Below, in pieces: positions 5,743 to 55,959 of a stretch of DNA of 58,310 nt. The stretch spans positions 1 to 58,310 of the forward strand of contig JBDROB010000070.1 of NCBI GenBank assembly GCA_043810355.1, read 5' to 3'. The stretch's first letter is position 1. The number at the start of each line of letters is the position of its first letter. The notes under the pieces are model-generated. The model ran no database searches. It saw nothing but the letters and a program-made list of their open reading frames with translations, and was not told the DNA's origin. Origin of the DNA: Candidatus Woesearchaeota archaeon. GTDB taxonomy: Archaea > Nanobdellota > Nanobdellia > Woesearchaeales > JAGVYU01. The position numbers were made by a program, and so were the translations under genes.

Positions 5743-5786
5743 TCATCTATTTCTCTTTTAATATTCTTTATCTTTTTAATATTTTC

Positions 5787-10422: not shown

Positions 10423-10478
10423 TATATAAACTTTTTCCTTATTTAAGTATCATATTATGAATTTAGTCAATAAGCAAA

Positions 10479-10625: not shown

Positions 10626-10671
10626 AGTAATAACCTCTTTTTTTGTATATTTTAACATATAAATCTTCTGA

Positions 10672-11205: not shown

Positions 11206-11466
11206 AAAGCCACCTACTATAATTTGTATGCTAATCCTCACTTTAAATCTTATAATATTAAAATCTTTCTAAATTCTGGCATAATACAAATAGAAAGTAT
11301 TATATACAAAAATATATAGGTTATAATAAACATAATAATGAAATGTAATAAATAGAATAATGGAAAGGATAAATGATAAATTTTGATAAATTAGATCAGT
11401 AAATGGAATGTAATCAAAAAGAGATTTTCAATTTTTTCATTAATTTTTTTTAAACTCAAAAGAGGT

Positions 11467-12702
11467 GTGAATTTGGAAATATTGATCCTTATCTTGGTCT
11501 TGCTGACTGCAAGCTTTATTATATCAAAATTTTTAGGTTATATAAAAATACCTCCAGTCCTAGGACCAATCATTATTGGAATATTCTTAGGAATACCTTA
11601 TGTAAAACTATTCTTGACATCAGGGAATCTTGAATTGCTTGAGTATTTGTCAAATGTCGGAATCATTTTCCTGATGTTTTATCTAGGATTAAAACTGGAT
11701 TTTCTGAGCCTGCAGAAGAATGCAAAAAAGCCATTATTGATATCAGCGTTTGCTTTCATCATCCCTTTGCTCATAGGATACTTTGTCTCGTTCTTTGTTT
11801 TTAATTTGTCAATGATAGAATCAGCCATCATCGGCTTCTCAATCTCAATATCAAGTGCAGCAGTGACAGTAATGATCCTTAAAGACTATAATCTGATCAA
11901 TTCCAGACTGGGAAACACCCTGATCGGAGCTACATTGATTGATGATATTTTTGGATTTCTAGTGATTTTAGGAATAATCGCAATGAAAAGAACATACCAA
12001 AATCCTGAGATTGGATTTTTGCTCATATTATTTGATTTCCTGATATTTATCTCATTGATATACATAGTAAGGTATCTTGTTGTACCTGCAGTCTTGAAAC
12101 TGATAGAGAAAAGAAACCAAAAAGTTGACTTATTTGTGGTTTCAGTCATAATGGCATTGCTGATGACAATAATCTCAGACCTGCTGAAGGTTGATTCAGT
12201 ATTGGGCGCATTCCTAGCTGGTATGATTGTGAGATACACTCTATTATCAGGAGGAAGACTAGAATATAAAAAGGAAAAGGATGTTACAGAACTTATCGAG
12301 GTTGCAACATTTGGATTCTTAGCGCCATTCTTTTTCATCTGGCTTGGATTTAATTTTGACATCCTTCAGTTCATTCAAATAAATCCAATATTGGCAATAA
12401 TCATAATTGTTGCAGCATTATTTGGAAAATTCATCGGAGTTGCAATTGGAAATGGGTTTGCAGGAGGTAATTTCCAGGAATCATTAGTATATGGATGGGG
12501 GATGAATATGAGAGGGGGATTAGAGCTAGTGCTGATTGAGATTGCAAGGGCATCAGCCTTCATATCAGGCGGGATATTCTCAGCGATAATAGTGATGACA
12601 ATAATCACCACATTTATCTCATCTGTATTTTTCAAGAATGATATATTGCTGTATAAATCTGCGAACAGGAAAAAATATGATAATCCCAAATATCGCAATT
12701 AA
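11467..12702 (+). CDS. Cation:proton antiporter (CPA2/KefB-like)
   Basis: About 12 TM segments; IPPVLG, GATLIDD, LGAFLAG, APFFFIWLG, GKFIG, RGG motifs. Confidence 0.9.
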   Translation: MNLEILILILVLLTASFIISKFLGYIKIPPVLGPIIIGIFLGIPYVKLFLTSGNLELLEYLSNVGIIFLMFYLGLKLDFLSLQKNAKKPLLISAFAFIIPLLIGYFVSFFVFNLSMIESAIIGFSISISSAAVTVMILKDYNLINSRLGNTLIGATLIDDIFGFLVILGIIAMKRTYQNPEIGFLLILFDFLIFISLIYIVRYLVVPAVLKLIEKRNQKVDLFVVSVIMALLMTIISDLLKVDSVLGAFLAGMIVRYTLLSGGRLEYKKEKDVTELIEVATFGFLAPFFFIWLGFNFDILQFIQINPILAIIIIVAALFGKFIGVAIGNGFAGGNFQESLVYGWGMNMRGGLELVLIEIARASAFISGGIFSAIIVMTIITTFISSVFFKNDILLYKSANRKKYDNPKYRN

Positions 12703-12703
12703 T

Positions 12704-12862
12704 ATGTCAGAAATATGCCGCTGGCCTGCATGACCAGTGGGCAATAGTCCGCAATCCATTTTTGGAAGGCGGTATATTTCTGAGCATGCTCAAAGCCAGC
12801 AGGGTGAGCGAAGCGAACATGCCGCCAGCATATTGACTGGTGGTTCCTGCCGGCTTTGACAT
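12704..12862 (+). repeat. 159-bp structured dispersed repeat, copy 1
   Basis: ATGTCAGAAATAT...CTTTGACAT; highly similar, same-length copies at 39039-39197 and 56209-56367; starts 1 nt after the antiporter stop. Confidence 0.95.
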
Positions 12863-12924
12863 GAGGCATGATAAAACCAAAAAAATAGCAAAACTTAAAT
12901 ACTTAAATTTCAAAGGGTTTGATA

Positions 12925-13650
12925 ATGGCAAAAAAAGCGGTGAATAAGAAAGGGAACAGCAGTTCAATGGATCCAAACAGGATATCTTCAGGAATACCAA
13001 AATTTGATGAATTATGCCAAGGCGGTTTCACAAGGCATTCAGTAAACCTGATATCAGGAGGGCCAGGATGCGGAAAGTCAATATTCTGCATGCAGTTTCT
13101 ATGGCATGGTGTGACAAGGATGAACGAGCCAGGAGTGTTTGTGTCAACCGAGGAGGAAGTTGATGACCTGAAAGAGGATGCGCTGAAATTTGGGTGGGAT
13201 TTTTCCCAACTTGAAAAAGAGAAAAAACTAGTCTTCATATATTTCAATCCATATGACATGACAGGATTAAAGGATAATCTGAACTCAGCGATAAGAAAAG
13301 TCAATGCAAAAAGGGTTGTGATAGACAGCATCTCAGTATATGGGATGGGGCTTGAGAATGAATTTGAAGTGAGGAAAGCACTTTATGACCTTTCAAGCTT
13401 TCTAAAGGAGACTGGATGCACATCATTGATGACAAGCGAGATAGTTGAAGACAGCAATGGAATAAAATTAAGCAGGTTTGGTGTTGAAGAGTTTCTTGCA
13501 GACAGCATAGTTGTCATAAGATTTGAGAGCATGGGAGGGGATTATTCAAGAAGCCTTCTTATAAGAAAGATGAGAAGGACAAATAACAATGAGGATATAC
13601 ATCCTTTGGAGATATCTAATAGGGGATTATTATTGCATAATCTTGATTGA
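12925..13650 (+). CDS. RAD55/KaiC-like (GvpD family) single-domain ATPase
   Basis: SSGIPKFDEL, Walker A GGPGCGKS, STEE, Walker B VVIDS, IRKMR. Confidence 0.9.
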   Translation: MAKKAVNKKGNSSSMDPNRISSGIPKFDELCQGGFTRHSVNLISGGPGCGKSIFCMQFLWHGVTRMNEPGVFVSTEEEVDDLKEDALKFGWDFSQLEKEKKLVFIYFNPYDMTGLKDNLNSAIRKVNAKRVVIDSISVYGMGLENEFEVRKALYDLSSFLKETGCTSLMTSEIVEDSNGIKLSRFGVEEFLADSIVVIRFESMGGDYSRSLLIRKMRRTNNNEDIHPLEISNRGLLLHNLD

Positions 13651-13808
13651 TTTATTTCTATCTTAAAAACAAGAGGTCTTGGCATGGTCAGAAAAGAAAA
13701 GTTTTTCTGAGACATTTGACATTTATAATGGGCTTTAAAGCTACAGTAAACTGTAACATTTGTTTATTGAAAATTCCGACTCTCTTGTTGGAATTTTCTA
13801 TTGGGTCT

Positions 13809-13942
13809 AATACCCCGACCTTTAGGTCGGAATTTTTAATGCTAAAAAATGCTTTGCATTTTTTGCACACCAGAAATTTGCTAAGCAAATTTCTCAGTGT
13901 CCCAAAAACCAAACGATAAATACCCCTGCCTTTAGGCAGGGG
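13809..13942. mobile_element. Probable non-autonomous IS200/IS605-type mini element (two end-like hairpins)
   Basis: Hairpins CCGACCT-TT-AGGTCGG (13815-13830) and CCCCTGCCT-TT-AGGCAGGGG (13923-13942), both in an AATACCCC context and in direct orientation; resemble IS200/IS605 subterminal palindromes; no transposase between them. Confidence 0.5.
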
Positions 13943-14012
13943 AATAGTTCGGTTTTTGTTATATTTGGAAAGAGCAAAAAATGAGCTTGACCTTGCCAAT
14001 GCAATCTTCAAA

Positions 14013-14048
14013 CAGCCTATTGACTGGTGGTTCCTGCCGACTTTGACA
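14013..14048 (+). repeat. Truncated 3' fragment of the 159-bp repeat
   Basis: CAGCCTATTGACTGGTGGTTCCTGCCGACTTTGACA matches the 3' end of the full copies. Confidence 0.85.
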
Positions 14049-14095
14049 GAAAATTATATAAATAGTAAAGTTAGATATAACAAAAAAAGAGGAAA

Positions 14096-17056
14096 ATGAT
14101 TAAAAATTGTTTGATAGTCTTTTCTGTATTCTTCTTAGTTATTCCCATAGCCATATCCAGCTATCCTGAACCTTATGTTGAGAATGGAGAGTTTAATTCT
14201 ATTATCATACTTGGGGAAGAAGGAAGTTATTATGATGGGATTAGCGCAAATAAGCTAGGTGAAGCTTTGGGAGCAGTTAGTTCTGGAAAGGCAAGAGTTG
14301 CTTCATATAATATTGGCGATCTGCATGTTTATGGGGATGCTTTTCAAGTGAGACAAAATGGTGATATATTAGAAGGTTCTGAGTTTGTTCATGATGTGAT
14401 AAATATCTTAGATAGTAGTCATTTGGAAATGCTTAAAGATGGAGAATTTTCTACAAGTAAAGGTAATTTTGTTTATGATCAAACTTTGGAAGTGCCAGGA
14501 GGGGCATACAATTCATTGGAATATGCCAGGGGAATTCCTGATGATGATTCAAATATTCCAAAAGGCTATATGCTCTTTAACTCAAGCTATGTTTATACTT
14601 ATACATTAAGTTTTATTGATACGCCAATTTCTGAGATTGATACTGCTGCAAATGGGTATGAGCTAAAGGATTTTGAAAAATCTGACATAACAATGCTAGG
14701 GAAGGAATTCTTTTTAATTGACACTGACCATAATGCAAACAACAGTGTTGTTTTGACATTATTGAGCGGAGCAGAAAAAGGAGTTCTTCAGGAGGGGGAG
14801 AAAAAAGAATATGAATTAAATGGGGAGAAGTATGAGATTGAGTTGGTTGCTGTTCAAGATGTTGCTCCGAGCACTGCATTGTTTAAAATTAATGGGGTTT
14901 CTACAAATTCGATTTTAGAAGGAAATACAGATATTGTTAATGGAATGCAAATTACTGTTAGTGAGATTATTCCAAATGAGGCAGGAGATGTGACACTTGA
15001 TTTAGTTGAGTTTTACCTTGACTCTTATAAGGTTGTATTGAAGGATACTGATGTTTCAAGTACGAGTACAGGTGGGCAGCAATATAAAGTTAATGATGAA
15101 ACTATAGATGATACTCGAGTTGAAATTGTTGCTGAAGATGATGGGAGAATTGCTGGAGAAGAATTTAAGCTTAATCAAATTATTATTAGGTGGGCTCCAT
15201 CACAAACCCATTATGTAGAAACAGAACAGTATCTTTCAGAAGTTTTGGAGGAAAGAGATGCATTGTTTGGCAATCTTGACTATTATTTTTATGGATCAAA
15301 TCCCAACAATGAAATAGAGTCTGTTGATCTTATTCCAAAAGGCAATAATGAGTATGTGCTTAAGTTTGAGAATTTGGATAGTGAATTATTAGAGGTTCCT
15401 CTTTTTTATAATAATGACGGAAGTTTTACAAGGTTTGGAAATTCAAATCATGCTCTTGTTGTGGATGAGGTGAGGGATATAACTCAAAATGACTTTTTCC
15501 TTGTAACAACTGATGGATCTGCTAATCCAACAGAAGCAAAAGGATTGACAAAGCTTTTCCAGTACAAAGGGCAGGATGTATCTGAAAACACCTTGAAATT
15601 CAAGAATATGGGGACAGGCGAGGTCTTTAAAATCAATTATAATGCAACTGACTCATTGAATGTAGGTGGGGAAGAATTTATAATAAGTGTAAAGCAAAGT
15701 GCAGTTAATAATGGAAATATTTCAATAGACTTGAATAAGGATGGAAGCATAGATTCTGGAGATGTTCCAGTATTGGTTACTAAGTATTTGGCAAAAATAG
15801 TATTGGATGCAAATACTTTTAGTAAGCTTGAAGTAATTTCTCCTGATTCTGAAGAAGGGGTTTCATTGGCAGCATGGGCTCCTTATGGAGTTACTGAAGG
15901 CCATGATTATTTTCTAATAAGTGTGGGTTCTGATTCAAGGGGGAATATTGATATTGGTGCTCTTGGAAGGTGTTTAAGTTCGAATCTTGATGAGATGACT
16001 GTTGCACTTGGAGCAGGACTTGCAGCTGTAGTGCAGGCAGGATGTTACAATACTTGGACAAATGTGACTTACTCTTTCTTAAAAAGAGTTGGAACAACAG
16101 ATAATTATGATGGAGCTGGAGCTTGGGGAAGTTTTGTTGAATTGTACAAAGATAATAATGGTCCAGATACTATTTATATTGCAGGAGCAAAGAAAATGGA
16201 TGAGACATTGTTCTTTATTACTGATACAAATGCTGAATTTGAGCTTATTGAAGAAGAAGATGAAGAGAGTAATGCTTCAGTATTTGGATTGACATCAAAA
16301 AATATCATTCTTGATAGTGATATAACTAGTAAGAAGAATATTATATCAGTTGGAGGTCCTTGTATTAATCAGAAGACAGCTGAGATAATGGGATTAAATT
16401 ATCCTACATGTGGTGATTTAGGAGTTGGTCCTGGAGAAGCATTGATAAAGGAGTATGATTATGAAGATGGAAAAGTGCTTGTTGTTTTTGGCTATGATTC
16501 TCTTGACACTTTTAATGCTGTTGAAAAGTTGAATTCAGGAATTGAATTGTATGATAATAGTGTTTTGATTAAAGGGGATATTGCAACGGAGTTTACAGGG
16601 TTGATTGAGAAAAAGGTTGAGAAGGTGATGACTACGACCACTACCTTGCTTGAGTCTACTCTTGGATGCGATGGGGGAGCTCTTGCTATAGGTAGGTATG
16701 ATACTCAATCGAGAAAATTTGGAGTAAGAGTAAATAGATACACTGATGTATCAATTGATATGAAAGGACTAAATGGAGTGCTAACTTTAACTGTAAATAA
16801 ACCATTTAAGTCGCAACTTGGTGTTGATTTCCTTGATTATTCTATTCATATAAGACAAGATGATTGTTTTGGCAATGAAGTCCAACTGATTGATGGGCAG
16901 CAGACTGAAGGGGAACAAGTATTAATACATGAGATCATTGTTCCAGAGCCTGGTTGTTACTGTATGTATATAGAAAATGAAGATTTTTTCTTGGATTCAG
17001 CATCAATTGAGCTGAAACCGACAGGCACATTTATGCTTCCTTTTGGAACTAGTTAG
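14096..17056 (+). CDS. S-layer-like protein with extra C-terminal domain
   Basis: Signal peptide; N-terminal YPEPYVENG..IILGE..D..SA and C-terminal IISVGGPCIN...VLVVFGY..DT motifs of archaeal S-layer N/C domains; acidic, beta-rich; TTTTT linker then about 130 aa extra. Confidence 0.75.
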   Translation: MIKNCLIVFSVFFLVIPIAISSYPEPYVENGEFNSIIILGEEGSYYDGISANKLGEALGAVSSGKARVASYNIGDLHVYGDAFQVRQNGDILEGSEFVHDVINILDSSHLEMLKDGEFSTSKGNFVYDQTLEVPGGAYNSLEYARGIPDDDSNIPKGYMLFNSSYVYTYTLSFIDTPISEIDTAANGYELKDFEKSDITMLGKEFFLIDTDHNANNSVVLTLLSGAEKGVLQEGEKKEYELNGEKYEIELVAVQDVAPSTALFKINGVSTNSILEGNTDIVNGMQITVSEIIPNEAGDVTLDLVEFYLDSYKVVLKDTDVSSTSTGGQQYKVNDETIDDTRVEIVAEDDGRIAGEEFKLNQIIIRWAPSQTHYVETEQYLSEVLEERDALFGNLDYYFYGSNPNNEIESVDLIPKGNNEYVLKFENLDSELLEVPLFYNNDGSFTRFGNSNHALVVDEVRDITQNDFFLVTTDGSANPTEAKGLTKLFQYKGQDVSENTLKFKNMGTGEVFKINYNATDSLNVGGEEFIISVKQSAVNNGNISIDLNKDGSIDSGDVPVLVTKYLAKIVLDANTFSKLEVISPDSEEGVSLAAWAPYGVTEGHDYFLISVGSDSRGNIDIGALGRCLSSNLDEMTVALGAGLAAVVQAGCYNTWTNVTYSFLKRVGTTDNYDGAGAWGSFVELYKDNNGPDTIYIAGAKKMDETLFFITDTNAEFELIEEEDEESNASVFGLTSKNIILDSDITSKKNIISVGGPCINQKTAEIMGLNYPTCGDLGVGPGEALIKEYDYEDGKVLVVFGYDSLDTFNAVEKLNSGIELYDNSVLIKGDIATEFTGLIEKKVEKVMTTTTTLLESTLGCDGGALAIGRYDTQSRKFGVRVNRYTDVSIDMKGLNGVLTLTVNKPFKSQLGVDFLDYSIHIRQDDCFGNEVQLIDGQQTEGEQVLIHEIIVPEPGCYCMYIENEDFFLDSASIELKPTGTFMLPFGTS

Positions 17057-17174: not shown

Positions 17175-20100
17175 ATGACACTACGAAGATCTATACTTAT
17201 AGTTGAAAGTGGTCCTAGAAGGGCTGATCTAGAAGGGGTTTTAAAAGCTTCTTTTCCAGATTATACTATTTATTCTTTTGCTCAGCCTTCAGATGTTAAT
17301 CTTCCAGAGTTAAGCGGTGTTGATGTTGTAATCGGAGATTATGCCTTTAGTGATCAAGGGGATTTTATGCTAGCTGAATTGGCTCAACATAATCCTAATG
17401 CAAGGCAATTAATTTTAGCTAATCAGGATCAAGTTTCCAAAGCAGTTGGTCTTATAAGCGATGGTAGAATAAATGGGTATATTCTGAAGCCATTAGAAGC
17501 GATTGAGGCAATGGTTGTTCCTGTTCTTGAGGAATTATTTCAAAGAATCCATCTTTCAGGAAGTGAATTTCAGGCATCACAACTTGACCAAAAAAGGGTT
17601 ATTGATATTTTTAAAGATTATGGCAATCCTATATTAACTAAGTTATTGCAAATGTTTGGCATGGACACACGTTTTGCAAAGGCAGAAGGCCAGTATGTGT
17701 TTGATGCTGATGGAGAAAAATATTTAGATTTGCTTGGTTCTTTTGGGGCTCTTAATTTAGGTCATAATCCTCCTCAGATTGAAGCAAAGTTACGAGAGAT
17801 TGCTATGTCTCCAAAATTACTTCAGCCCGGACTTAATCCTTATCATGCAGAAGTACTTATGCTTCTTGACCAAATAACGCCAGATTCTGTTTCTAGAGCT
17901 TATTTAGCAAACAGCGGAGCTGAAGCAACAGAAGCAGCTCTTAAATTAGTGGCAGCAGCTACTGGAAAAAGTGCTGTTGTCCATACACAAGGATCATTTC
18001 ATGGAAAAACTCTTGGTGCACTTTCTGTGACCGGAAATCGCAAATATCAAGGACCTTTTAGTGGTTTACTGGTCCAACAACCAGTTATCCCTTATAATGA
18101 TCCAGAAGCACTTGAAAAGATGTTAAGTTCAAGAGATGACATTGCTGCTTTTATTGTTGAACCTATCCAGGGAGAAGGAGGAATTAATGTGCCTTCATCT
18201 GATTATTTGCAAAGAGTTAGGGATATTTGTACTGAACACGGTGTTTTGTTAATTGTTGATGAAATTCAAACTGGACTTGGTAGAACAGGAAAAATGTTTG
18301 CCTCTTCAGATATAAATCCAGATGTTTTACTTATTGGAAAATCACTAGGAGGTGGTCATGTACCTGTAAGTGCAATGATGACTTCTGATAAATTATGGAA
18401 TCTGGCATATGGAACAACTGATAGTGCATTATTGCATACATCTACTTTTAGTGGAAATACTACTGCTTGTGCAGTTGCTGCTGAGTCGATAAGAACATTG
18501 CTAAGTGGTAATTATATTGATAGAGCCAAAGTATTGGGGGATTATCTTTTATCTGGATTACAATATTTACAAGAAATGCATGATATTATTAAGGAAGTCA
18601 GAGGGCAAGGATTAATGATTGGTATTGAATTTAACAAACCCTTTCTTGGAAACCTAATGACTGAGAATTATCTTGGTCAAATAATTGCAGGACAATTATT
18701 CCGTAATTACCATATTATTACTTCTTTTACTCTTAATCGACCAAACATTTTGAGAATTGAACCTCCTTTAACAATAACAAAGGAGGATATTGATTATGCC
18801 TTAAAGTCTATGGATGACCTATTTACAAGATTACCTAAACCAGAACATCATGTAGCCACAATGATACAGTATATGACAAGTGAGGATCTTGATGAAATGG
18901 TTGAAATGGGAACAATTATTGGAGGAAGACAAGAACCAGTTGATTTGGATTCTGCTCATGTGAATGTTATTGCAGATAGACTGATAGCAGATCCTGCTTT
19001 ACTTATGTTAAGAACTAAAACATATGGATCTCTTGATCCTGATCGACGCGAACTGGTTTCGTCAGTTTATACAAATACAATAACTGAGATAAATCAAAGA
19101 GCTTTACAAGCTTCATGTGATGCTGCTAAAGATTTTCATGCAGTTCCCATGTCACAAAGACATAAAGCTCTTGCCAAGTGGGGTGATTTAGTTACAGAGA
19201 ATTTTTCAAGTTTGGTAAAAATAGGCACATTTGAAGGTTTTAGTTATCAAGCTATGCTCTGGCAATTAGACACTATCTTAAATATTCTTGATCCTGAACA
19301 TTTGGTTACTTTAGAAAATATGATGAGGCCTTACCAAACAGCACAAGGTTCAAGAACAGTGTTTTATCGAGAATCAATTCCTGGAGTTGTTGGAATTACT
19401 CCTGCCGCTAATGCTGCAATTGTTTTAGGAACATTAGGTGTTGCATCATCTGTCAGTAGTGGAAAATCATTTGTAATGTCTGCAGGTACCTCTCTTACTA
19501 CGCATACTTTAATGAATTATCTTATAGATGCGTTTGAGGAAAATGGAATTGATCCTGCTCCTATTAATGTTATTTATAGCAATAACAGGGGTTCGATAAA
19601 GGAATGGCCTGGATTTGGAATAAGTGATAGTGGAATTGTGACAGTTGATCCTTCTCTTGAACAGAGAAGAGCTCTTGATTTTGTTGCTTATTGGGGACCA
19701 AGGAATGAAAAACTCATGGAATCTTTTGATAAAGCCGGAATTCAGGGCAGTTATGACCTTAATGGATCAGATCCTATTATTGTAAATAAAGATGCTGACA
19801 TTGACAGAGCTGTCTCTGACATAATGCTTAGGTATGCTGCAAGTGGACAAATATGTATTTCTCCAAAAAGAGCAATTGTGCATGAAGATGCAGCAGGGAT
19901 TGTGTTAGAGAAAGTTAATTATGAAATTAAACAATTACGTGCAGGACTGCTATCAGATCCAACAACAGATTTAATGCCTGTACCTGGCATAAGAGACAGA
20001 AGTAGGTATGAAGAAGCTATTAAACAAGCACTTGGAGAAGGAGGCTTAGTTTATATTAGCGGGGAATTAGTTCCTCTAGGAACAGAATTTTCAAGCTTAG

Positions 20101-20552
20101 AATTATGTCTTGATTACCAAGGAAAACCAGTTGCTTTTGGACCTTATTTAGCACCTGCTGTTGTTCAGGTTCCTCCAGGAAAACAATTTATTGCGGCTTT
20201 AGAAGAAATGTTTAATCCTTTATTATCTTTTCAAATATTTTCAACTCCTGAAGAAGCTATTAATTTAGCTAATAGTTCACGATATGGAATTCGAGCAGGA
20301 GTATGGGCTGAGGATACTCAATTTGTTAATGAGTGTGTTACAAGAATAGGTTCTGCATCGGTATTTGTTAATACACCTCACCTTAACTTATCGCCAGATT
20401 CTCCTGATTTAGGGGGTGGCAAAGATTCAGGTAGAAATATAGGTCCTGGAGGAGCGAAATACTTAGTATATGAATTTGCAGGACCACTTAAACAAGTTAA
20501 ATTCTATTCAAAAGAAGCTGCTAAAGCATTTATGGCTGGATACAAACCTTAA
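17175..20552 (+). CDS. Fusion: receiver domain + class III PLP aminotransferase + aldehyde dehydrogenase-like domain
   Basis: REC: ILIVE, VVIGD, GYILKP. AT-III: YLDLLGSFGALNLGHN, NSGAEATEAALK, SFHGKT, EPIQGEGG, DEIQTGLGRTG, GKSLGGG. ALDH: GITPAN, DLNGSDP, SGQIC, EEMFNP, ANSSRYGI. Confidence 0.85.
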   Translation: MTLRRSILIVESGPRRADLEGVLKASFPDYTIYSFAQPSDVNLPELSGVDVVIGDYAFSDQGDFMLAELAQHNPNARQLILANQDQVSKAVGLISDGRINGYILKPLEAIEAMVVPVLEELFQRIHLSGSEFQASQLDQKRVIDIFKDYGNPILTKLLQMFGMDTRFAKAEGQYVFDADGEKYLDLLGSFGALNLGHNPPQIEAKLREIAMSPKLLQPGLNPYHAEVLMLLDQITPDSVSRAYLANSGAEATEAALKLVAAATGKSAVVHTQGSFHGKTLGALSVTGNRKYQGPFSGLLVQQPVIPYNDPEALEKMLSSRDDIAAFIVEPIQGEGGINVPSSDYLQRVRDICTEHGVLLIVDEIQTGLGRTGKMFASSDINPDVLLIGKSLGGGHVPVSAMMTSDKLWNLAYGTTDSALLHTSTFSGNTTACAVAAESIRTLLSGNYIDRAKVLGDYLLSGLQYLQEMHDIIKEVRGQGLMIGIEFNKPFLGNLMTENYLGQIIAGQLFRNYHIITSFTLNRPNILRIEPPLTITKEDIDYALKSMDDLFTRLPKPEHHVATMIQYMTSEDLDEMVEMGTIIGGRQEPVDLDSAHVNVIADRLIADPALLMLRTKTYGSLDPDRRELVSSVYTNTITEINQRALQASCDAAKDFHAVPMSQRHKALAKWGDLVTENFSSLVKIGTFEGFSYQAMLWQLDTILNILDPEHLVTLENMMRPYQTAQGSRTVFYRESIPGVVGITPAANAAIVLGTLGVASSVSSGKSFVMSAGTSLTTHTLMNYLIDAFEENGIDPAPINVIYSNNRGSIKEWPGFGISDSGIVTVDPSLEQRRALDFVAYWGPRNEKLMESFDKAGIQGSYDLNGSDPIIVNKDADIDRAVSDIMLRYAASGQICISPKRAIVHEDAAGIVLEKVNYEIKQLRAGLLSDPTTDLMPVPGIRDRSRYEEAIKQALGEGGLVYISGELVPLGTEFSSLELCLDYQGKPVAFGPYLAPAVVQVPPGKQFIAALEEMFNPLLSFQIFSTPEEAINLANSSRYGIRAGVWAEDTQFVNECVTRIGSASVFVNTPHLNLSPDSPDLGGGKDSGRNIGPGGAKYLVYEFAGPLKQVKFYSKEAAKAFMAGYKP

Positions 20553-33047: not shown

Positions 33048-33383
33048 TTAAATGAATAAAGAATTTAATTTTCTTAAAACTTGTGCAAACTTTTTCTGGT
33101 TAAGCATATCAATCTTTTTAATAATTAAATCTTTTTTAATTCTTAAAATTGCATCAACTTTTATCAATGATTTCCTGCTTAACACTCCTATTTCAACATC
33201 ATTCTTATCAATTAATAATGAGTGAGGTTTTTCACTTATCTGTGAAGTCATAGCACATACAAGGATATCCTCTCCTGAATCATTAAATGAGTTTTTAGAA
33301 ATAACTATGGCTGGTCTGATCTTCTTGTTTGATTGGTCAGAAAAGGGAAATGGCAAAAGCACTATCGATCTTTGTTCAAACAT
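33048..33383 (-). CDS. MazF/PemK-family toxin
   Basis: IVLLPFPFSD...KIRPAIVIS, CAMTS; start ATG 33383. Confidence 0.88.
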   Translation of the reverse strand: MFEQRSIVLLPFPFSDQSNKKIRPAIVISKNSFNDSGEDILVCAMTSQISEKPHSLLIDKNDVEIGVLSRKSLIKVDAILRIKKDLIIKKIDMLNQKKFAQVLRKLNSLFI

Positions 33384-33385
33384 TT

Positions 33386-33661
33386 TTATAAATATTCTCT
33401 CCATACTTTATCATCTTCCTCATTATCCCAAATGTCTTTTAAATTAGCTTCTGCTAAAGCAAGAAGGCCCAGGTCCTCCTTTTTTCCCTCTGATGATTTT
33501 AATTTTTTTAACATTTTTTCAATTACCTCAACTTTTTGCAGAGTTAGCTTATTACCTTCCTCTAGCAATATCAACTTAGTGCCTTTATCAATCTTGTGCC
33601 TTTTGCGAACATGTTCAGGGATAACAAGCTGTCCTTTTGATGATACTATTATAGATTCCAT
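33386..33661 (-). CDS. AbrB/MazE-family antitoxin
   Basis: VSSKGQLVIPEHVRK AbrB motif; acidic tail IWDNEEDDKVW; directly upstream of the toxin. Confidence 0.88.
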   Translation of the reverse strand: MESIIVSSKGQLVIPEHVRKRHKIDKGTKLILLEEGNKLTLQKVEVIEKMLKKLKSSEGKKEDLGLLALAEANLKDIWDNEEDDKVWREYL

Positions 33662-39911: not shown

Positions 39912-40301
39912 ATGCATGTCTTAAAAAGAGTATATATCCAATTCTTTGCTTTTCTAGTATTATTGATAGTTTTTGTTGCATTTAAAGGTTCTGTGACAGG
40001 TAATGTAGTGTTAGAAGTAGGAGACAAGACAATAAACCTATTCAACACAATTGTCGGAGCCTTGACCATGGTTTTAGTAGTAATGGTGCTTGTTCTAGCA
40101 TATAGACCAGTATATCAGAATAATATTAATGGAGAAATAAGAAGACACAAGATACATGAGGCAGTTGATATACAGGATTTGCAGAACTTTATCTCGACAG
40201 CAAAAGGAAAAGGGTATTCTAATGAAGAAATCATTGATGGCCTTAAGGATCACAACTGGGGAGAAGACCTGATAGAAAGGGCATTTATGAGGATTGAGTG
40301 A
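39912..40301 (+). CDS. Hypothetical membrane protein
   Basis: Two TM segments with a VTGNVV motif; C-terminal LQNFI....KGYSNEEI...L....W helical module. Confidence 0.7.
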   Translation: MHVLKRVYIQFFAFLVLLIVFVAFKGSVTGNVVLEVGDKTINLFNTIVGALTMVLVVMVLVLAYRPVYQNNINGEIRRHKIHEAVDIQDLQNFISTAKGKGYSNEEIIDGLKDHNWGEDLIERAFMRIE

Positions 40302-41115
40302 TCTGTGATTTTGGTCTATTTTCTGCATGTTTTTCTTTTTTGTATATGTAAAATAAGAAGATTAAGCCGCAAATGAACATCACAACATTAATTATCTGGC
40401 CTAAAGTAAGGCCAAGCCAAAGATAACCAATCTGAGGGTCAGGGGACCTTACAAATTCGATGAAAAACCTCAAAGTTGAGTACATAATGACAAATAATCC
40501 AAATATAGTGCCTTTTGGAACTTTCTTATCCTTGACATTCCAAAGGACAATGAAGATAAAAAGGTTTTTTAAAGATTCATAAAGTTGTGAAGGGTGCCTG
40601 TAAACCAATTCTCCAATTGAATTTGTCTCATTGTTGAAATTCACACCCCATGGCAGGTTTGTGACAGTGCCTATTAATTCTGCATTTAGGAAATTGGCAA
40701 GCCTGCCGAATACCAATGCAAGTGCAGATGGGATTACAGACATGTCAGCAATATCAAGAGGATTGATCTTCTTGATCTTTGACATGATATAACCTACAAT
40801 TATCCCACCCAAAAGACCACCATGAAAACTTAAACCACCTTCCCAGATGTAAAATACCTTGATAGGATTTGAGAAATAATATGGGAAATTATACACCAGG
40901 CAATAAAAAATCCTTGATATAATAAGTGCACCAATAATAGAATAAATGATCAAGTCAGTCAGATCCTCTTTATCAACATCAGGAATCCTTTTCTTGGCAA
41001 GATACAACATGATAAAATATATGAGAATCACTCCAATGACTATAAACAGGCCATAATACCTGATCTGAAAAGGTCCAAGGTTTAATAGTATAGGATCAAT
41101 ATTGTTGATAAACAT
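40285..41115 (-). CDS. lgt: Prolipoprotein diacylglyceryl transferase
   Basis: IDPI...GPFQIRYYG, WEGGLSFHGG, GRLANFLNAE, RHPSQLYES, RFFIEFVR.PD, TLGQ. Confidence 0.93.
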   Translation of the reverse strand: MFINNIDPILLNLGPFQIRYYGLFIVIGVILIYFIMLYLAKKRIPDVDKEDLTDLIIYSIIGALIISRIFYCLVYNFPYYFSNPIKVFYIWEGGLSFHGGLLGGIIVGYIMSKIKKINPLDIADMSVIPSALALVFGRLANFLNAELIGTVTNLPWGVNFNNETNSIGELVYRHPSQLYESLKNLFIFIVLWNVKDKKVPKGTIFGLFVIMYSTLRFFIEFVRSPDPQIGYLWLGLTLGQIINVVMFICGLIFLFYIYKKEKHAENRPKSQITQSS

Positions 41116-44478: not shown

Positions 44479-46743
44479 ATGTTTTTAGACAACAATTATC
44501 TTAGGCAATTTTATGAAAATTATTCTGATAAAAATCGAGAGGTGAAAGAAAGGCTTAAAAAGCCTCTCACTCTGTCAGAAAAAATCATTTTCTCCCATAT
44601 AAGAAATATCCCTGAAAACATTGAAAAAGGCAGGACAGAAGTATCATTAAAGGTTGATAGGGTAGCAATGCAGGATGCAACAGCACAGATGGCAATATTG
44701 CAGTTCATGCTGACAGGAAGAGAGAAAGTTGCAGTACCTACAACAATCCATTGCGATCATCTGATCCAGGCACATAAAGGATCTTCACAAGACCTTAATA
44801 CAGCAATCAAGGAGAATCAGGAAGTCTATGATTTCCTGAAGAGCGCCTCTAATAAATATGACATCGGGTTCTGGAATCCTGGATCTGGCATAATCCACCA
44901 GGTAGTATTCGAGAACTATGCCATACCTGGCGCATTGATGATAGGAACAGATTCACACACTCCAAATGCAGGAGGACTATGCATGATAGCCATCGGTGTT
45001 GGCGGAGCTGATGCTGTCGATGCAATGGCTGGCGAGAACTGGAACATTTCAATGCCAAAAATCATAGGAATAAAACTCACTGGAAAACTTGATGGCTGGA
45101 CTGCTCCAAAAGATATAATACTAAAAGTCGCTGAACTCTTGACTGTAAAAGGAGGGACTGGCTATATCCTTGAATATTTTGGCGAAGGTATCAGCTCTAT
45201 ATCTGCAACTGGAAGAGGAACCATAACAAATATGGGTGCTGAGATCGGCGCAACAACATCTGTATTTCCTTTTGACAAAAAGACAGCTGAATACCTGAGA
45301 TCAACATATAGGGCAGATGTCTCTGATTTTTCAGATAAGATCAAGCAAGACCTTCAGTCTGACAAAGAGGTTCTTGAAGATCCTGAGAAATATTTTGACA
45401 AGGTCATTGAGATAAATCTATCAGAGCTAAAACCGATGATAAATGGCCCACACTCTCCTGATTTTGCTCATCAATTGGCAGATATAGGGGAAAATGCAAA
45501 GAAAAATGAATGGCCTGTAAGATTGTCATATGCATTGATCGGAAGCTGCACAAATTCTTCCTATGAAGATATGCAGAGAGCTGTATCAATCGCAAGACAG
45601 GCTGCTGAAAAAGGTGCAAGAGTAAAATGCGGTTTTATGATAACTCCAGGCTCTGAGCAGATCTACAGGACTATAGAAAGGGATGGTCTCCTTGAAGTGT
45701 TTGAAAATATAGGAGGAATTGTCCTTGCAAATGCCTGCGGCCCATGCATAGGCCAATGGAAAAGAGATGATATCAAGTTAGGGGACAAGAATTCCATAAT
45801 ATCTTCATACAACAGGAATTTCAAAAAAAGGAATGATGCAAATCCTGAAACTCATGCATTTGTCGCAAGCCCAGAGATTGTGACAGCATATGCTTTGGCA
45901 GGGGGACTTGATTTCAATCCTCTGACAGATTTTCTAGAGACTCAATCTGGAGAAAGATTCAGGCTTAAACCACCATCAGCCATTGGCTTGCCATTAAAAG
46001 GTTTTGTCTTTGACACTACTGGCTATGATAAACCAACTGGCTCTGGGAATGTCATAATAAATCCTGATAGTGAAAGGCTCGCCTTTCTCAATCCATTTGG
46101 ACCTTGGAACAAAGAAAAGGATTTCAAGGATTTGTTTGTCCTAGTAAAGGCAAAAGGAAAATGCACAACTGATCATGTCAGCCCTGCAGGAAAATGGCTG
46201 AAATATAGAGGCCATCTTGACAAGATATCTGATAATCTTTACAGCGGGGCAGTCAATGCATTCACAGATGAAGTAGGGAATGGAAAAAATATCATGACAG
46301 ATGAGCAAGGGATTGAATTCAGCAGGATCTCAAGGCATTATCATAATAATGGCAGGGGATGGATTGCAGTAGGTGATTCAAATTATGGAGAAGGATCCAG
46401 CAGAGAGCATGCTGCGATGGAGCCTAGACATCTTGGGTGCAGGGCGATAATTGCAAAGAGTTTTGCACGGATTGCTGAGACCAATCTCAAGAAACAAGGA
46501 ATATTGCCCTTATGGTTTGAGAATGAAAGTGATTATGATAAAATCAAAGAGCATGACCTGATTACAATACCTGATGTTGATATTAAATGCGGAAATCCAG
46601 TAAAGATTCAGATAAAACATTCTGACGGCTCTCAAGAAGAGATAATGGCAAAACATACATATTCTGAAGAGCAGATCAAATGGTTTAATGCTGGGTCAGC
46701 ATTGGATGAGATAAGGAATAGAAATGAAGAGATTGAAAATTAG
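44479..46743 (+). CDS. Aconitate hydratase (mitochondrial/Bacteroidota-like subtype)
   Basis: DRVAMQDATAQMA, HCDHLI, GTDSHT, GSCTNSSYED, ANACGPCIGQW, KCTTDH, NYGEGSSREHA. Confidence 0.93.
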   Translation: MFLDNNYLRQFYENYSDKNREVKERLKKPLTLSEKIIFSHIRNIPENIEKGRTEVSLKVDRVAMQDATAQMAILQFMLTGREKVAVPTTIHCDHLIQAHKGSSQDLNTAIKENQEVYDFLKSASNKYDIGFWNPGSGIIHQVVFENYAIPGALMIGTDSHTPNAGGLCMIAIGVGGADAVDAMAGENWNISMPKIIGIKLTGKLDGWTAPKDIILKVAELLTVKGGTGYILEYFGEGISSISATGRGTITNMGAEIGATTSVFPFDKKTAEYLRSTYRADVSDFSDKIKQDLQSDKEVLEDPEKYFDKVIEINLSELKPMINGPHSPDFAHQLADIGENAKKNEWPVRLSYALIGSCTNSSYEDMQRAVSIARQAAEKGARVKCGFMITPGSEQIYRTIERDGLLEVFENIGGIVLANACGPCIGQWKRDDIKLGDKNSIISSYNRNFKKRNDANPETHAFVASPEIVTAYALAGGLDFNPLTDFLETQSGERFRLKPPSAIGLPLKGFVFDTTGYDKPTGSGNVIINPDSERLAFLNPFGPWNKEKDFKDLFVLVKAKGKCTTDHVSPAGKWLKYRGHLDKISDNLYSGAVNAFTDEVGNGKNIMTDEQGIEFSRISRHYHNNGRGWIAVGDSNYGEGSSREHAAMEPRHLGCRAIIAKSFARIAETNLKKQGILPLWFENESDYDKIKEHDLITIPDVDIKCGNPVKIQIKHSDGSQEEIMAKHTYSEEQIKWFNAGSALDEIRNRNEEIEN

Positions 46744-49861: not shown

Positions 49862-49889
49862 AGCAATCTTACAGCAATTTTTCAGCAAT
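49862..49889 (+). promoter_or_regulatory. Three AGCAAT direct repeats at 11-bp spacing
   Basis: AGCAAT at 49862, 49873 and 49884, upstream of the pilin-like/SLT genes. Confidence 0.4.
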
Positions 49890-49919
49890 TGTGAAAGTTT
49901 TAATGAAAAAAGAGGCAAT

Positions 49920-50693
49920 ATGATGGGCTTAAACAAAAAAGGACTTGTCACAGTGTTTATACTCATCGGAATATTTCTTCTGATTGCATTCGGAGCATTC
50001 TTTTTTATGAGGTTTCAGCAGTTCCAGCCAGATGACAGTGTGGTCACAGTATCATATGATTTCCAGACTGCCACAAGTTTTATTCATTCATGTGCTGAGA
50101 GGAAAGCTAATGAAGCATTAGTGAGGATATCTGACCAAGGGGGATCTTATCTCTTGACAGAAAATTATTATGACCATCCATTCTTTCCAGTTGCATATCA
50201 TTACATGGATGGAGAGAACATGGCCTATTCACCTGAAGAGGTCAGTGAAGAGCTTTCTAAGTTCATGGATGAGAAAGTGATCGGGTGCATTGATGAAGCA
50301 AATAATGTCCAGAAAAATGTTCTAGTCAGCCAGGATGGAGAACCAGAGACAAGGACAACAATCAATGAGAATTCAGTCGAGTTTGATGTAAAGTTTCCAT
50401 TGAAGATGGATATGGGAAATAATCATCATAAGGAAAGCATGTTTGTTGTAGAGATTGAGAATCTAAGGTTGATAAAAATATTAGAGTTAAGCTGGAGGCT
50501 TGCAAAAGAACAAGGAGAGCATAAGGAGTCATTATGCTACAGCTGCATCTATAAACTTGCTGAAGAGAACAATATGAGAATAGATTATACAAAAATAGGG
50601 GATGATGTCATATATTATTTTATCACAGACCTTACTTCAAGAATAGACGGACTGCCATTGACATTCAGTCTTGCACATAAAAATGGAATATAA
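49920..50693 (+). CDS. Pilin-like protein with class III signal peptide
   Basis: NKKG|LVTVFILIGIFLLI then a Cys-containing globular domain (FIHSC, QGG, IGC). Confidence 0.7.
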   Translation: MMGLNKKGLVTVFILIGIFLLIAFGAFFFMRFQQFQPDDSVVTVSYDFQTATSFIHSCAERKANEALVRISDQGGSYLLTENYYDHPFFPVAYHYMDGENMAYSPEEVSEELSKFMDEKVIGCIDEANNVQKNVLVSQDGEPETRTTINENSVEFDVKFPLKMDMGNNHHKESMFVVEIENLRLIKILELSWRLAKEQGEHKESLCYSCIYKLAEENNMRIDYTKIGDDVIYYFITDLTSRIDGLPLTFSLAHKNGI

Positions 50694-52686
50694 GAACCTG
50701 ATAATCGGAATGGGCATAATCCTAGTCATAATGGGATTAGTCATTGCTGAGGATGCTGGTCAGGCTGAATTTGATGCTGAGTCAGCATCACCTCAAGAGA
50801 TAGCTGATAATTTTGACAGCATAGGCGATCTCAGCTCTGTTGATAATTTTGAAGGAGTCCAGGATGCCTTTAAGATGAAATTTGGAGTCGAGCTTACTGG
50901 TTTATCAGGGTTTGCAAAACTTACTGGAAATATATTATCAACAAACACTATGTCTTTTTCTATGGAAAATATTGACAGCGGATCATTAGAGGTTGATAAG
51001 GACGGGAACATAGTCTACACGCCAGATGAAGGCACAACTGAACTGGAACTTTCTGGATCAGACAATGTGATGGTAGACACTGACGGAAGGGAAATATCAC
51101 TTCTGACAGAATCAGGGGTTCCAGCAGATGTTAGCGGAAAATTCACTTTCAAGGAAAATTCATTGATTGTCTATCAAGATTCACCAGTAAGTGTGAATGG
51201 ATATGAATTTGACAATAGTGGAGATGACCTTTCTATCAGATTTAGCGGAGAAGGTGATGGGATAACTTTCCAAGAAACAGGGATAAGGGCAGAGAATGTT
51301 GAGGATATCACAATAAGAACATCAACAGGGGTGGAAATCGCTTTTGACAGGGGAAAAGCAACAGCTGAGATTGACTATAGGTTCCTTGATGGAACACTAC
51401 TAAAGAGCGGAATGCAGAATGAAAGAGTAACAGACCTATCTAATCTGCTGAATGATCTTGGTTATACTGGAGCAAATGGAAGACCTCTTGACACCCAGTC
51501 ATTGATTTATGGCCCAAACACAAGGAATGCAGTCACACAGCTGCAGAGCGATCTGGACAAGGAAGGAATTGGGCTGTTGCCAAAATATCATTCAGATGGC
51601 GTGTTTGGAGGAGAGACCCTTTCTGCATTCAACACTGCAGTAGGGCCTGAGATCAGGCTCATAAGCGGTGACATAAGCATCACAAGCGACAATATCTATA
51701 CTGAGAATGGAATGATAATGGGACCGACTGGACAAAATCCTCATGAGCATGGATTTCAACTGATCACAGAACAAGACAATTATAGAGCATATCTGCAGGG
51801 GTTTAGGGATAGTGATGTCATTGGAGGAGATGTAACAAGAGAGGTTGTAGGAATTATTGATGCAAGAGAGGTAGTCACAACAAATGAGCTTGGCAGGTTT
51901 GTTGGCTCTAAAAATCAGGATGTCATCAATTATCTTATGGTCACAAAAGGATTGAATTATGATCAAGCGGCAAATTACTTCAATAATATTTATGGAACTG
52001 GTGACAGCGGGTTTAGGGCCCTTGTTCAGGACAGGGAAGGCAGCTTTAATCATCCAAATGCACCAAGACCTGCTTCAACAGGACAGGAGCAAGTACCACC
52101 ATTAGTAGAAAGTCCAAGGCCAGCTGTTGCTGGAACAACAGAATTCAAATATAATTATGAATCTCCTGACGGAGATTATACTGAGTTTGCAAATTATCTT
52201 GACAGCCTGACAAAAACTCAGGGCAGAAATAGTGTTACATCCCAGCTTGGAATTGAAGATAATAGGGATAATTTTGGAGTACAGATGGAACAAAATATCA
52301 GAGGCTACAAGCCATTGATACAGGAGGCAGCAGCAAAATATGATGTCCCCCCTGAACATATTGAAGCTATACTCATCCATGAATCTGGCGGAGCCTCTAA
52401 TTCAGTAAGCACTTCAAGACATGAATGCCTCGGGCCAATGCAATTAAGCAGGTGGCTGTATAAAGATTCTGAGGATTTTGGCCCTGCAATAAATCCATTT
52501 AATGCTGTGCAGGCGATTGACAGAGGAGCAGCTTATTATGCCAACTATTACCATAAATATGGGATGCAGAGGGCATTGGCAACCTATAATGGAGGGCCAA
52601 ACCTATACTCTATTCCAGGACCTCAAAGATATTCACGAGATGTGCAGAGGATAATAAATGCTGGTTCTATCAATAAGTATGATTAG
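50683..52686 (+). CDS. Secreted peptidoglycan-binding protein with C-terminal SLT lytic transglycosylase domain
   Basis: Signal peptide; PG-binding motif LKSG...V..L..LL.DLGY...YGPNTRNAVTQLQ...DGVFGGET (~51400-51630); SLT motifs IQEAAAKYDV, IHESGG (Glu at 52381), GPMQL, ALATYNGGP. Confidence 0.88.
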   Translation: MEYKNLIIGMGIILVIMGLVIAEDAGQAEFDAESASPQEIADNFDSIGDLSSVDNFEGVQDAFKMKFGVELTGLSGFAKLTGNILSTNTMSFSMENIDSGSLEVDKDGNIVYTPDEGTTELELSGSDNVMVDTDGREISLLTESGVPADVSGKFTFKENSLIVYQDSPVSVNGYEFDNSGDDLSIRFSGEGDGITFQETGIRAENVEDITIRTSTGVEIAFDRGKATAEIDYRFLDGTLLKSGMQNERVTDLSNLLNDLGYTGANGRPLDTQSLIYGPNTRNAVTQLQSDLDKEGIGLLPKYHSDGVFGGETLSAFNTAVGPEIRLISGDISITSDNIYTENGMIMGPTGQNPHEHGFQLITEQDNYRAYLQGFRDSDVIGGDVTREVVGIIDAREVVTTNELGRFVGSKNQDVINYLMVTKGLNYDQAANYFNNIYGTGDSGFRALVQDREGSFNHPNAPRPASTGQEQVPPLVESPRPAVAGTTEFKYNYESPDGDYTEFANYLDSLTKTQGRNSVTSQLGIEDNRDNFGVQMEQNIRGYKPLIQEAAAKYDVPPEHIEAILIHESGGASNSVSTSRHECLGPMQLSRWLYKDSEDFGPAINPFNAVQAIDRGAAYYANYYHKYGMQRALATYNGGPNLYSIPGPQRYSRDVQRIINAGSINKYD

Positions 52687-52794
52687 ATCATGAATACTTT
52701 CTTTAAATCCTTAAAATGGTTATCTTTTTTACCTTTAGTTCCTTGTCTGTGCCCATAAGATATTCTATCCAATCTGATGGTCAATAACAATCAT
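52683..52794 (-). pseudogene. Decayed VapC (PIN) toxin
   Basis: MIVID, frameshift, SDWIEYLMGTDKG joined almost directly to a PIN-like C-terminus DNHFKDLKKVFMI*; middle of the domain missing. Confidence 0.7.
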
Positions 52795-55290: not shown

Positions 55291-55959
55291 ATGATAAAAT
55301 CAAGAAAAGCTTCTCTGGAACTTTCTGTTAATGCGATTGTCATAATTGTTTTGGCAATGACCCTTTTAGGGCTAGGCTTATTCTTTATCAGGGGATTATT
55401 CGGGAATGTGATTGATTTGTCAGAATCTACATTTTCCAAGATATCTGATGAAGTAAGCCAGAAACTTAGCAGTGGTCGGGATAAATTATTATTCTCGAGC
55501 ATCCAATTCACACTTGAAAGAGGCAAGACAAAATTAGAAGGTTTTGGGATAAGAAATGATGGCAATGCACAATTGAATTATGGTGTGAAATTTTATTCGA
55601 TAAGTTGTCCTGATCTTAATAATACTGTTTGTAATCCCCCTCCTAATGATAATAACAAAATCGATACATGGTTTACCTATGTGAAAGGTCCAAAAGCTTA
55701 TCAGCTTGCAGCAGGAGACAGTCATGTGAAAAGAGTTGAGATAAAGATACCAAGTCAGGCAAAAACAGGATTATATTTGATAAAAATGGTTGTTTTTTAT
55801 GCTCCTGACGAAATGGCTGCTGCAACACCCCCATCATTTAACGCTTCTACAGAGTCTGATCCATCAAGAGCACCTGGATGGAAAATATTACCAACTTCAT
55901 GTGTAACAACTTCATGTGCAATATATGATGAGACTGAAATATTTTTAACAGTTGCGTAA
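55291..55959 (+). CDS. Pilin-like protein with class III signal peptide
   Basis: SRKA|SLELSVNAIVIIVLA; Ig-like region with GIRN and GLY..K..V; four Cys; GAGGTG SD. Confidence 0.75.
   Translation: MIKSRKASLELSVNAIVIIVLAMTLLGLGLFFIRGLFGNVIDLSESTFSKISDEVSQKLSSGRDKLLFSSIQFTLERGKTKLEGFGIRNDGNAQLNYGVKFYSISCPDLNNTVCNPPPNDNNKIDTWFTYVKGPKAYQLAAGDSHVKRVEIKIPSQAKTGLYLIKMVVFYAPDEMAAATPPSFNASTESDPSRAPGWKILPTSCVTTSCAIYDETEIFLTVA

Follow-up and report, generated by a model that had tools for sequence, protein, structure and literature searches.

The ORF1-ORF2 locus

Two overlapping genes on the forward strand of contig JBDROB010000070.1, from a Candidatus Woesearchaeota archaeon, are the subject of this analysis. 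The whole 58,310-nucleotide (nt) stretch of DNA that was analysed is called the window. ORF1 (the "A" protein, 257 amino acids (aa)) is an open reading frame at 49920-50693 (+). ORF2 (the "B" protein, 667 aa from the ATG at 50683) is an open reading frame at 50683-52686 (+), with an alternative start at the TTG at 50671. An earlier reading, made from the letters and their open reading frames (the sequence-only reading), had described a class III signal-peptide protein that overlaps a secreted protein of 667 aa by 11 nt. This description was accurate: the ATG of ORF2 at 50683 falls within the last codons of ORF1, whose stop is at 50693, and the two frames share 50683..50693.

The N-terminus of ORF1 reads MMGLNKKG/LVTVFILIGIFLLIAFGAFFF (KKG/LVTVFILIG around the predicted cleavage, marked by the slash); it consists of a basic stretch, a glycine, and a hydrophobic helix, as in the class III-type pattern. 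Residues 1-8 (49920..49943) form the putative class III signal peptide, predicted from sequence to be cleaved after Gly8. Mature residues 9-34 (49944..50021) are the hydrophobic N-terminal helix, and residues 46-257 (50055..50690) are the ectodomain, which has two alpha/beta subdomains, Cys58/Cys123, and a QGG(Y) motif. ORF1 had no match in Pfam or NCBIfam. The AlphaFold2 (AF2) model of ORF1 is confident (predicted local distance difference test, pLDDT, 89.3). In this model a low-confidence linker (35-43) connects a helix comprising residues 6-34 to two alpha/beta lobes (46-180 and 184-257). The best VIA-align match of the model, to a gp25-like protein, had a Z of 7.0, where the usual noise level is Z 7-8.

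ORF2 begins with a hydrophobic Sec-type signal, MEYKNLIIGMGIILVIMGLVIA/ED (residues 1-22, ending in VIA/ED; 50683..50748), with cleavage presumed from the sequence. This signal is not of class III, because it has no K/R-G motif. An acidic N-terminal stretch (residues 23-70) and an acidic beta-rich region (about 101-233) follow and together span 50749..51381. The sequence-only reading had noticed this acidic, beta-rich character, and the composition agrees with it: residues 25-240 contain 19-24% D+E, and strands are predicted, albeit in a low-confidence model (mean pLDDT 32.8 for the full-length protein, from a three-row alignment). A PG_binding_1-like domain is located at residues 246-290 (51418..51552; 22.3 bits, cut-off 23). 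For this domain the earlier claim was upheld by relatives more than by ORF2 itself, in which the match is sub-threshold: PG_binding_1 recurs at the homologous place in 3/3 aligned ORF2 relatives (E<=0.01), and in the relative from genome G040 it scores 24.4 bits, which is above the cut-off.

The C-terminal part of ORF2 matches the GH23-type SLT lytic transglycosylase domain (PF01464, residues 545-640, 52315..52602) at 38.2 bits against a cut-off of 21.3; a six-frame search gave 42.2 bits. When the SLT part was aligned with E. coli EmtA (PDB 2y8p; E 0.002 over ~50 residues), HE567SGG of ORF2 fell on IESGG of EmtA and GPMQL on GLMQL. A YNGG motif is present at residue 635. The motif names of murein transglycosylases are E-S, G-L-M-Q, and A-Y-N-x-G. 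Glu567 (52381-52383) is, on this motif alignment, the candidate catalytic residue, and the SLT domain and glutamate proposed in the sequence-only reading are thus both recovered. A phmmer search of the Protein Data Bank with full-length ORF2 returned nothing at E<=0.01, and phmmer gave no match between ORF2 and the other SLT proteins of the source genome. No PilY1/PilC-type Pfam domain was found in ORF2 at E<=0.1. Among 5.8 billion proteins, ORF2 has one close relative (87% identity), which NCBI names a lytic transglycosylase domain-containing protein of Candidatus Woesearchaeota archaeon. We conclude that ORF2 is a predicted secreted, peptidoglycan-binding lytic transglycosylase.

A conserved A family with exchangeable B partners

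A word-based homologue search with ORF1 returned nothing beyond ORF1 itself. A six-frame search of 61 related genomes found ORF1-like matches in 52 of them, often several in each. The family profile was built from alignment A1, which contains 19 members and in which C58, G75, and C123 are invariant and a QGGY motif is present. Searched against 1.84 billion representative proteins, the profile matched 9,735 at E<=1e-3, and 3,499 under the stricter limit of E<=1e-30. It also matched 115 of the 121 genomes sampled under the phylum, where the genomes listed for this count all belong to the same order or the same class. Among the 150 top family representatives, 139 have [KR][GAS]Q followed by a hydrophobic run, and a FlaFind-like pattern fits 118. 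The neighbours of ORF1 in the ESM Atlas are all labelled "hypothetical protein", come from Archaea/Nanobdellota, and have no Pfam family. The source genome encodes 11 proteins with an ORF1-type domain, the longest of 1,275 aa. Profile comparison places ORF1 in a very large, unnamed family of DPANN archaea.

The genes next to these A genes were inspected in two sets of loci. The first set comprised the 11 best ORF1-like loci outside the source genome, one of which lies at a contig edge and could not be evaluated. A large, same-strand partner with a Sec signal is located 3' of the A gene in all 10 evaluable loci; eight of these partners overlap the A gene, and two start 13 and 89 nt downstream of it. 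The second set, hand-picked and not random, comprised 21 short-form family genes, two of them at contig ends. A partner was present in 16/19 evaluable loci, with an overlap of exactly 4 nt in 13. The A/B junction in the relatives is mostly a 4-nt ATGA overlap. Within the source genome, several A-domain genes precede secreted proteins of 447 to 2,619 aa. Short members of the family are nearly always coupled to a large secreted protein.

The partners differ greatly from one another. The B proteins range from 314 to more than 2,000 aa, are acidic, and carry only a cleavable Sec signal. An all-against-all BLAST of 22 B proteins yielded only 8 matching pairs. Among these proteins, ORF2 matched only its orthologue in the sister genome G001 and the middle of the G040 partner, with which residues 137-324 align at 27% identity. 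The G040 locus is the closest cassette outside the genus; its partner keeps the beta-rich and PG-binding part and has an M23 peptidase domain where ORF2 has SLT. Judged from this alignment, the difference between the two proteins is a swap of the catalytic head.

In a Pfam scan of 35 B partners, murein modules were found in nine. SLT with PG_binding_1 accounts for two of the nine, ORF2 and its orthologue. The G040 partner combines PG_binding_1 with M23 (28.5 bits against a cut-off of 28.7), and PG_binding_1 is also found in the partner on source-genome contig C3 (60.8 bits) and in the G034 partner. LysM occurs in two G010 partners and one G017 partner (up to 78 bits), and M23 in the G060 partner (118 bits). 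ORF2 and its orthologue are not independent of one another, so the independent count is 8 of 34 partners. Of the remaining 26/35, some matched Ig-like, fn3, beta-helix, or, weakly, TPR, and others had no match. As judged from these domain assignments, the recognisable B cargo beyond Ig-like, fn3, beta-helix, and weak TPR matches is peptidoglycan-directed, and the ORF1-ORF2 pair is one of a lineage-wide set of cassettes in which a conserved A is joined to an exchangeable B.

A pattern noticed after the fact downstream of the signal peptide, aromatic-[DSTNE]-[PDAS]-[EDQKP], was present in 15/38 B-like proteins and in 12/171 control ORFs. We treat this possible docking pattern as a lead only, because it was derived from the same sequences.

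Three further loci are recorded here in their own right. The cassette on source-genome contig C3 (4377-9339, +; L036) has a secreted B protein of 1,162 aa with two strong PG_binding_1 repeats, in which Pfam recognised no catalytic domain. At L058 (G005:C13, 2544-5368) an A gene has no same-strand partner; its 3' end overlaps, tail to tail and by 4 nt, that of a gene for a 686-aa secreted NlpC/P60 protein. In the complete 1.3-Mb genome G018, at least five genes of the A type, each with a large secreted partner, occur within ~35 kb (L023/L024, G018:C1, about 21600-55300), which looks like an island of cassettes.

Genomic setting of the pair

The source genome consists of 1.46 Mb in 83 contigs and is 87.6% complete and 0.82% contaminated. 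The 58-kb contig encodes a proteasome alpha subunit, SBDS, the exosome proteins Rrp4, Rrp41, and Rrp42, IleRS, and an S-layer-type protein. The gene for the NOG1 GTPase is located directly 5' of ORF1. MscS, the gene after ORF2, is on the opposite strand, and an archaeal-type uL16 gene is also found downstream. The GC contents of ORF1 and ORF2 (0.37 and 0.42, respectively) are similar to those of the neighbouring genes. The best phage match to the SLT part of ORF2 has 31-36% identity over 71% of the domain, and no phage genes were seen in the window.

Genes for PBP transpeptidases, GT51 transglycosylases, and SEDS proteins were not detected in the source genome, which is 87.6% complete; the archaeon would therefore offer ORF2 no wall of its own as a substrate. 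The genome has a single Mur-ligase-type gene, as do the archaeal controls. An immunity-protein reading of ORF1 was considered and rejected: the A protein is conserved while the B protein is variable, and the host has no murein to protect.

The sequence-only reading had proposed a synteny check in related genomes, and this was informative. The sister genome G001 has the identical order, NOG1 - A - B - MscS - uL16 - pilin-like gene. The ORF1/ORF2 pair in the second genome of the genus has 91% and 87% identity, respectively, and the same order, which is more than chance. In the next genus (G002 and G003), uL16, MscS, and NOG1 lie side by side, and the ~330 nt that separate MscS from NOG1 contain no ORF1-family member; a family member is also absent at this place in G018 and G040. 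The presence of the pair in G001 and its absence from the corresponding site in G002 and G003 point to an insertion in the line leading to the genus. On this comparison of gene orders, the ORF1-ORF2 pair was inserted between NOG1 and MscS and is specific to the genus. The only flanking repeat detected was an imperfect inverted pair of 27 nt (74%, 49762/52878) in AT-rich DNA, which is not evidence of mobility.

One A24 prepilin peptidase gene is present in the source genome (contig C56, 61.2 bits), and a type IV ATPase gene occurs with a platform protein gene at three loci. The copies of these two kinds of gene in the genome are on contigs C79, C1, C69, C13, and C34. SLT matches were found at five loci of the genome. 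At one of these, on contig C72, a run of ~ten small genes with pilin-type N-termini was observed (about 5628-15980, -; L039). This run closes with a gene for a 458-aa protein that joins a pilin-type N-terminus, MRMKRKKG/SIFLTAAIPF, to an SLT domain (26 bits). Another SLT protein of the genome carries SLT and LysM. Across the order, SLT scored above the cut-off in 95/151 genomes, compared with 0/4 archaeal control genomes.

The window has a further gene of interest at 55291-55959 (+). The N-terminus of its 222-aa product, MIKSRKA/SLELSVNAIVIIVLA, is clearly of class III type, and the protein matches NPCBM_assoc/Ig-like weakly (18.1 bits). Its G001 counterpart is a 289-aa ORF with the same N-terminus at the same place, and G002 and G003 each have two tandem copies of this type of gene near uL16.

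The region upstream of ORF1 (49862..49915) has features that may act as a promoter. Three AGCAAT words are found at 49862, 49873, and 49884 (+) with an exact spacing of 11 nt; from their arrangement, this triplet is a possible regulator site. An A/T-rich, TATA-like TTTTAATG at 49898 and then AGAGG at 49911 precede the ORF1 ATG. Downstream, a T-run, TCTTTTTTAC (52723..52732, +), begins 37 nt past the ORF2 stop and is a possible archaeal terminator.

Other genes in the window deserve mention. A bacterial-type prolipoprotein diacylglyceryl transferase, Lgt (PF01790, 244 bits), is encoded at 40285-41115 (-) in this archaeal genome. The aconitase at 44479-46743 (+) matched the "mitochondrial-type" equivalog TIGR01340 best (1,049.9 bits, cut-off 825); the archaeal/bacterial AcnA models were not the best match. 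A single frame of 1,125 aa at 17175-20552 (+) contains a class III aminotransferase (318 bits) and an aldehyde dehydrogenase (145 bits). At 33048-33404 (-) lies a MazF/PemK-type toxin gene (65 bits), and the small ORFs that adjoin it may encode an antitoxin.

A probable surface module and its alternatives

We consider it probable, though far from certain, that ORF1 and ORF2 form a surface module in which ORF1 is the cell-bound carrier and ORF2 a murein-cutting enzyme aimed at a contacted bacterium. ORF1, with its class III-type N-terminus and two-lobed ectodomain, would be a membrane protein that serves as the scaffold or carrier for ORF2. Through translational coupling the two proteins would be made together. 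ORF1 would insert in the membrane and possibly be cut by the A24 peptidase, while ORF2 would leave by Sec and then be held by the ORF1 ectodomain. The PG_binding_1 region of ORF2 would bind murein, and the SLT domain, with Glu567, would cleave the bond between N-acetylmuramic acid and N-acetylglucosamine (MurNAc-GlcNAc). Since the archaeon itself makes no murein, the target would be the wall of the contacted bacterium. The steps that we infer in this scheme are ORF1 signal cleavage, binding between A and B, surface retention, murein activity, and the bacterial target.

Several results weigh against this explanation. ORF1 has Leu after the Gly (KKG-L) where the family norm is Gln (KKG-Q), which makes it slightly atypical. 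In the ORF1 model, the low-confidence linker parts the hydrophobic helix from the globular part, unlike in classical pilins. A Foldseek search with this model returned nothing at E<=1e-3, leaving the ectodomain without a clear solved relative, and for several pilins and minor pilins the match was confined to the last lobe (181-257) at Z 4.4-4.9, which is background. No T2SSE (ATPase) or T2SSF (platform) gene is present in the window. The second locus set was chosen by hand, and 3/19 of its evaluable A genes have no same-strand partner. The PG_binding_1 score of ORF2 is just under the Pfam cut-off. Finally, 26/35 B proteins have no murein module, so the A+B family is not wholly murein-directed. 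A complex prediction for ORF1 (44-257) with ORF2 (23-330) gave a score of 0.00, was made without controls, and is uninformative either way.

The sequence-only reading had pictured a surface- or pilus-displayed, wall-opening enzyme for attacking or parasitising bacteria. This picture gained partial support from the archaeal genes of the contig, the lack of detected murein synthesis genes, the recurrent coupling of pilin-type genes to genes for large secreted proteins, a quarter of them with modules that bind or cut murein, and the fusion of SLT to a pilin-type N-terminus in another SLT protein of the genome. The pilus part fared less well: the window contains no pilus ATPase or platform gene, and the pilin resemblance of ORF1 is at background.

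Display on a filament, a sharper version of the surface-module explanation, is the likeliest of the alternatives, though we regard it as rather improbable. By analogy with minor pilins and PilY1 and with the Sulfolobus bindosome, ORF1 would be a minor or tip subunit of a type IV filament, and ORF2 the exchangeable cargo that opens the bacterial wall at contact. The class III-type N-terminus in 139 of the 150 family representatives favours it, as do the A24 peptidase and the three ATPase/platform loci of the genome and the C72 SLT paralogue with its pilin-type N-terminus at the end of ~ten pilin-like genes. Functionalised archaeal type IV filaments have also been published: PMC13705601 describes bindosomes and a PilY-like adhesin, arCOG03511, in such filaments, and gives these filament systems as widespread except in DPANN and Asgard archaea. 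On the other side, the cassette adjoins no assembly gene, the pilin fold match of ORF1 does not rise above background, and the helix of the ORF1 family is followed by a variable, charged linker. About 11 A-domain paralogues per genome, up to 1,275 aa in length, are also many for tip subunits.

Less likely is a role of the ORF1-type protein as a membrane-bound aid to export or folding, with ORF2 released to feed the archaeon by digesting debris of bacterial walls, and not to act in contact with a living host. Translational coupling suits a 1:1 helper no less than an anchor, the B proteins are long and acidic and have only a cleavable Sec signal, and DPANN genomes are described as small and scavenging-dependent in PMC8204110. 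However, AnmK, which is needed to use the anhydro-muropeptides released by lytic transglycosylases, was not found in the 87.6%-complete source genome. A helper would not need the conserved pilin-type N-terminus, and PG_binding_1 and LysM modules are what one would expect of an enzyme that remains bound to an intact wall.

A different substrate for ORF2 is more doubtful still. The enzyme would then act on a non-murein glycan, such as chitin, an archaeal surface glycan, or the pseudomurein of a methanogen host. The GH23 family includes chitinases, and LysM binds both chitin and murein. The sub-threshold PG_binding_1 match is compatible with this possibility, as is the divergence of the ORF2 SLT domain, for which the best solved match has an E of 0.002 and which phmmer does not connect to the other SLT proteins of the genome. 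Against it, sister cassettes carry M23 (118 bits in G060) and a neighbouring gene encodes NlpC/P60, and these cut the murein peptide. ORF2 also retains the E-S, G-x-M-Q, and Y-N-G-G motifs of murein transglycosylases, and the beta-1,3 links of pseudomurein resist lysozyme-type enzymes.

The sequence-only reading had named a bacterial contaminant or a prophage as what would undo it; although SLT is typical of bacteria and phages (the SLT search matched 8/14 control genomes, all of them bacterial) and the sister genus lacks the inserted pair, we reject both as very improbable, because the contig is archaeal chromosome with archaeal housekeeping genes on both flanks of the pair over 58 kb, the GC is like that of the neighbours, and the phage match is distant. 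With these go the 0.82% contamination, the absence of phage genes from the window and of convincing flanking repeats, an ORF1 family that in the Atlas listing is exclusively archaeal, and the close relative named by NCBI.

The enzyme itself has precedents. Large extracellular SLT proteins in Pacearchaeota and Woesearchaeota (fam00969), with attachment to bacterial walls proposed, are described in PMC8204110 (2021), and GH23 genes in Woesearchaeota metagenome-assembled genomes, with a "vampiristic" lifestyle, in PMC9723730 (Vigneron et al. 2022). The sequence-only reading was therefore right that the activity is not new, and these two sources also offer the same interpretation. Since such proteins are already published, the enzyme of ORF2 is ordinary for the lineage. 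ORF2 resembles the fam00969-type proteins in lineage, SLT domain, predicted extracellular site, and a proposed role in binding and degrading the bacterial wall. It differs from the SLT proteins of "up to 3,000" given in PMC8204110 in that it is short (667 aa), has PG_binding_1, and is coupled to a pilin-type gene. The archaeal peptidoglycan hydrolases of Strock et al. 2025 (PMC12352652) kill bacteria and, like ORF2, are secreted enzymes aimed at bacterial murein; that paper cites Woesearchaeota transglycosylases as a pointer to antagonism, only in passing, and its passages on the subject contain neither the word pilin nor a coupling to a partner gene. The words pili and pilin are likewise absent from PMC8204110 and PMC9723730. 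Full-text literature searches turned up no account of the family of pilin-type partners or of the cassette of two genes, though Supplementary Table 3 of PMC8204110 may list the family.

Compared with the family-1 lytic transglycosylases EmtA/MltE of E. coli, ORF2 shares E-S-G-G and G-x-M-Q. However, the likeness is limited to ~50 residues (E 0.002), the archaeal host lacks murein, ORF2 carries no lipoprotein anchor, and its enzyme terminates a stalk of 540 residues that is acidic, beta-rich, and PG-binding. In the Sulfolobus bindosome, as described in PMC13705601, functional proteins with class III signals are incorporated into a type IV filament base; a pilin-type N-terminus likewise places a non-pilin function at the surface, and the genes lie away from the assembly genes. 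There the class III signal is on the functional protein, whereas ORF2 has a Sec signal and the class III signal is on the coupled ORF1; the cargo there is a sugar-binding protein, whereas that of ORF2 is a predicted enzyme against the wall of another organism. The C72 SLT paralogue is like the bindosome in that the functional protein itself has a class III-type signal. Bacterial minor pilins with PilY1 and, in PMC13705601, the archaeal PilY-like arCOG03511 also place small pilin-type genes beside a large Sec-exported protein. This likeness is an analogy only: ORF2 has no PilY1/PilC-type domain at E<=0.1, and no assembly genes are nearby.

What is new, as far as the literature was searched, is the coupling of such enzymes to a near-universal, pilin-type carrier family with exchangeable and often murein-directed cargo. 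The A+B module probably serves contact with bacteria. According to PMC11291902, all cultivated DPANN archaea have archaeal hosts. For the uncultured Woesearchaeota and Pacearchaeota, the published case for bacterial hosts rests on the mere presence of SLT genes. Our finding adds organisation to this case, namely a pilin-type partner coupled to a swappable, secreted cargo.

We offer, as a possibility that we think improbable on present sequence comparisons, that the A+B cassettes are an archaeal polymorphic-effector system in which a near-universal pilin-type carrier displays one-to-one exchangeable cargo on a filament or on the surface. If this were true, the cargo would comprise murein transglycosylases, M23 peptidases, LysM and PG_binding_1 binders, and adhesins. 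Many DPANN archaea of the Woesearchaeota and Pacearchaeota type would then live on or prey on bacteria and not archaea, and the pair in the window would be a recently inserted cassette, a wall-opening tip for its genus. The value of the finding lies in the module and not in the enzyme of this locus. As a concrete two-protein unit, the module may serve as a marker for predicting which lineages engage bacteria, and it would tie the biology of type IV filaments to contact between domains of life.

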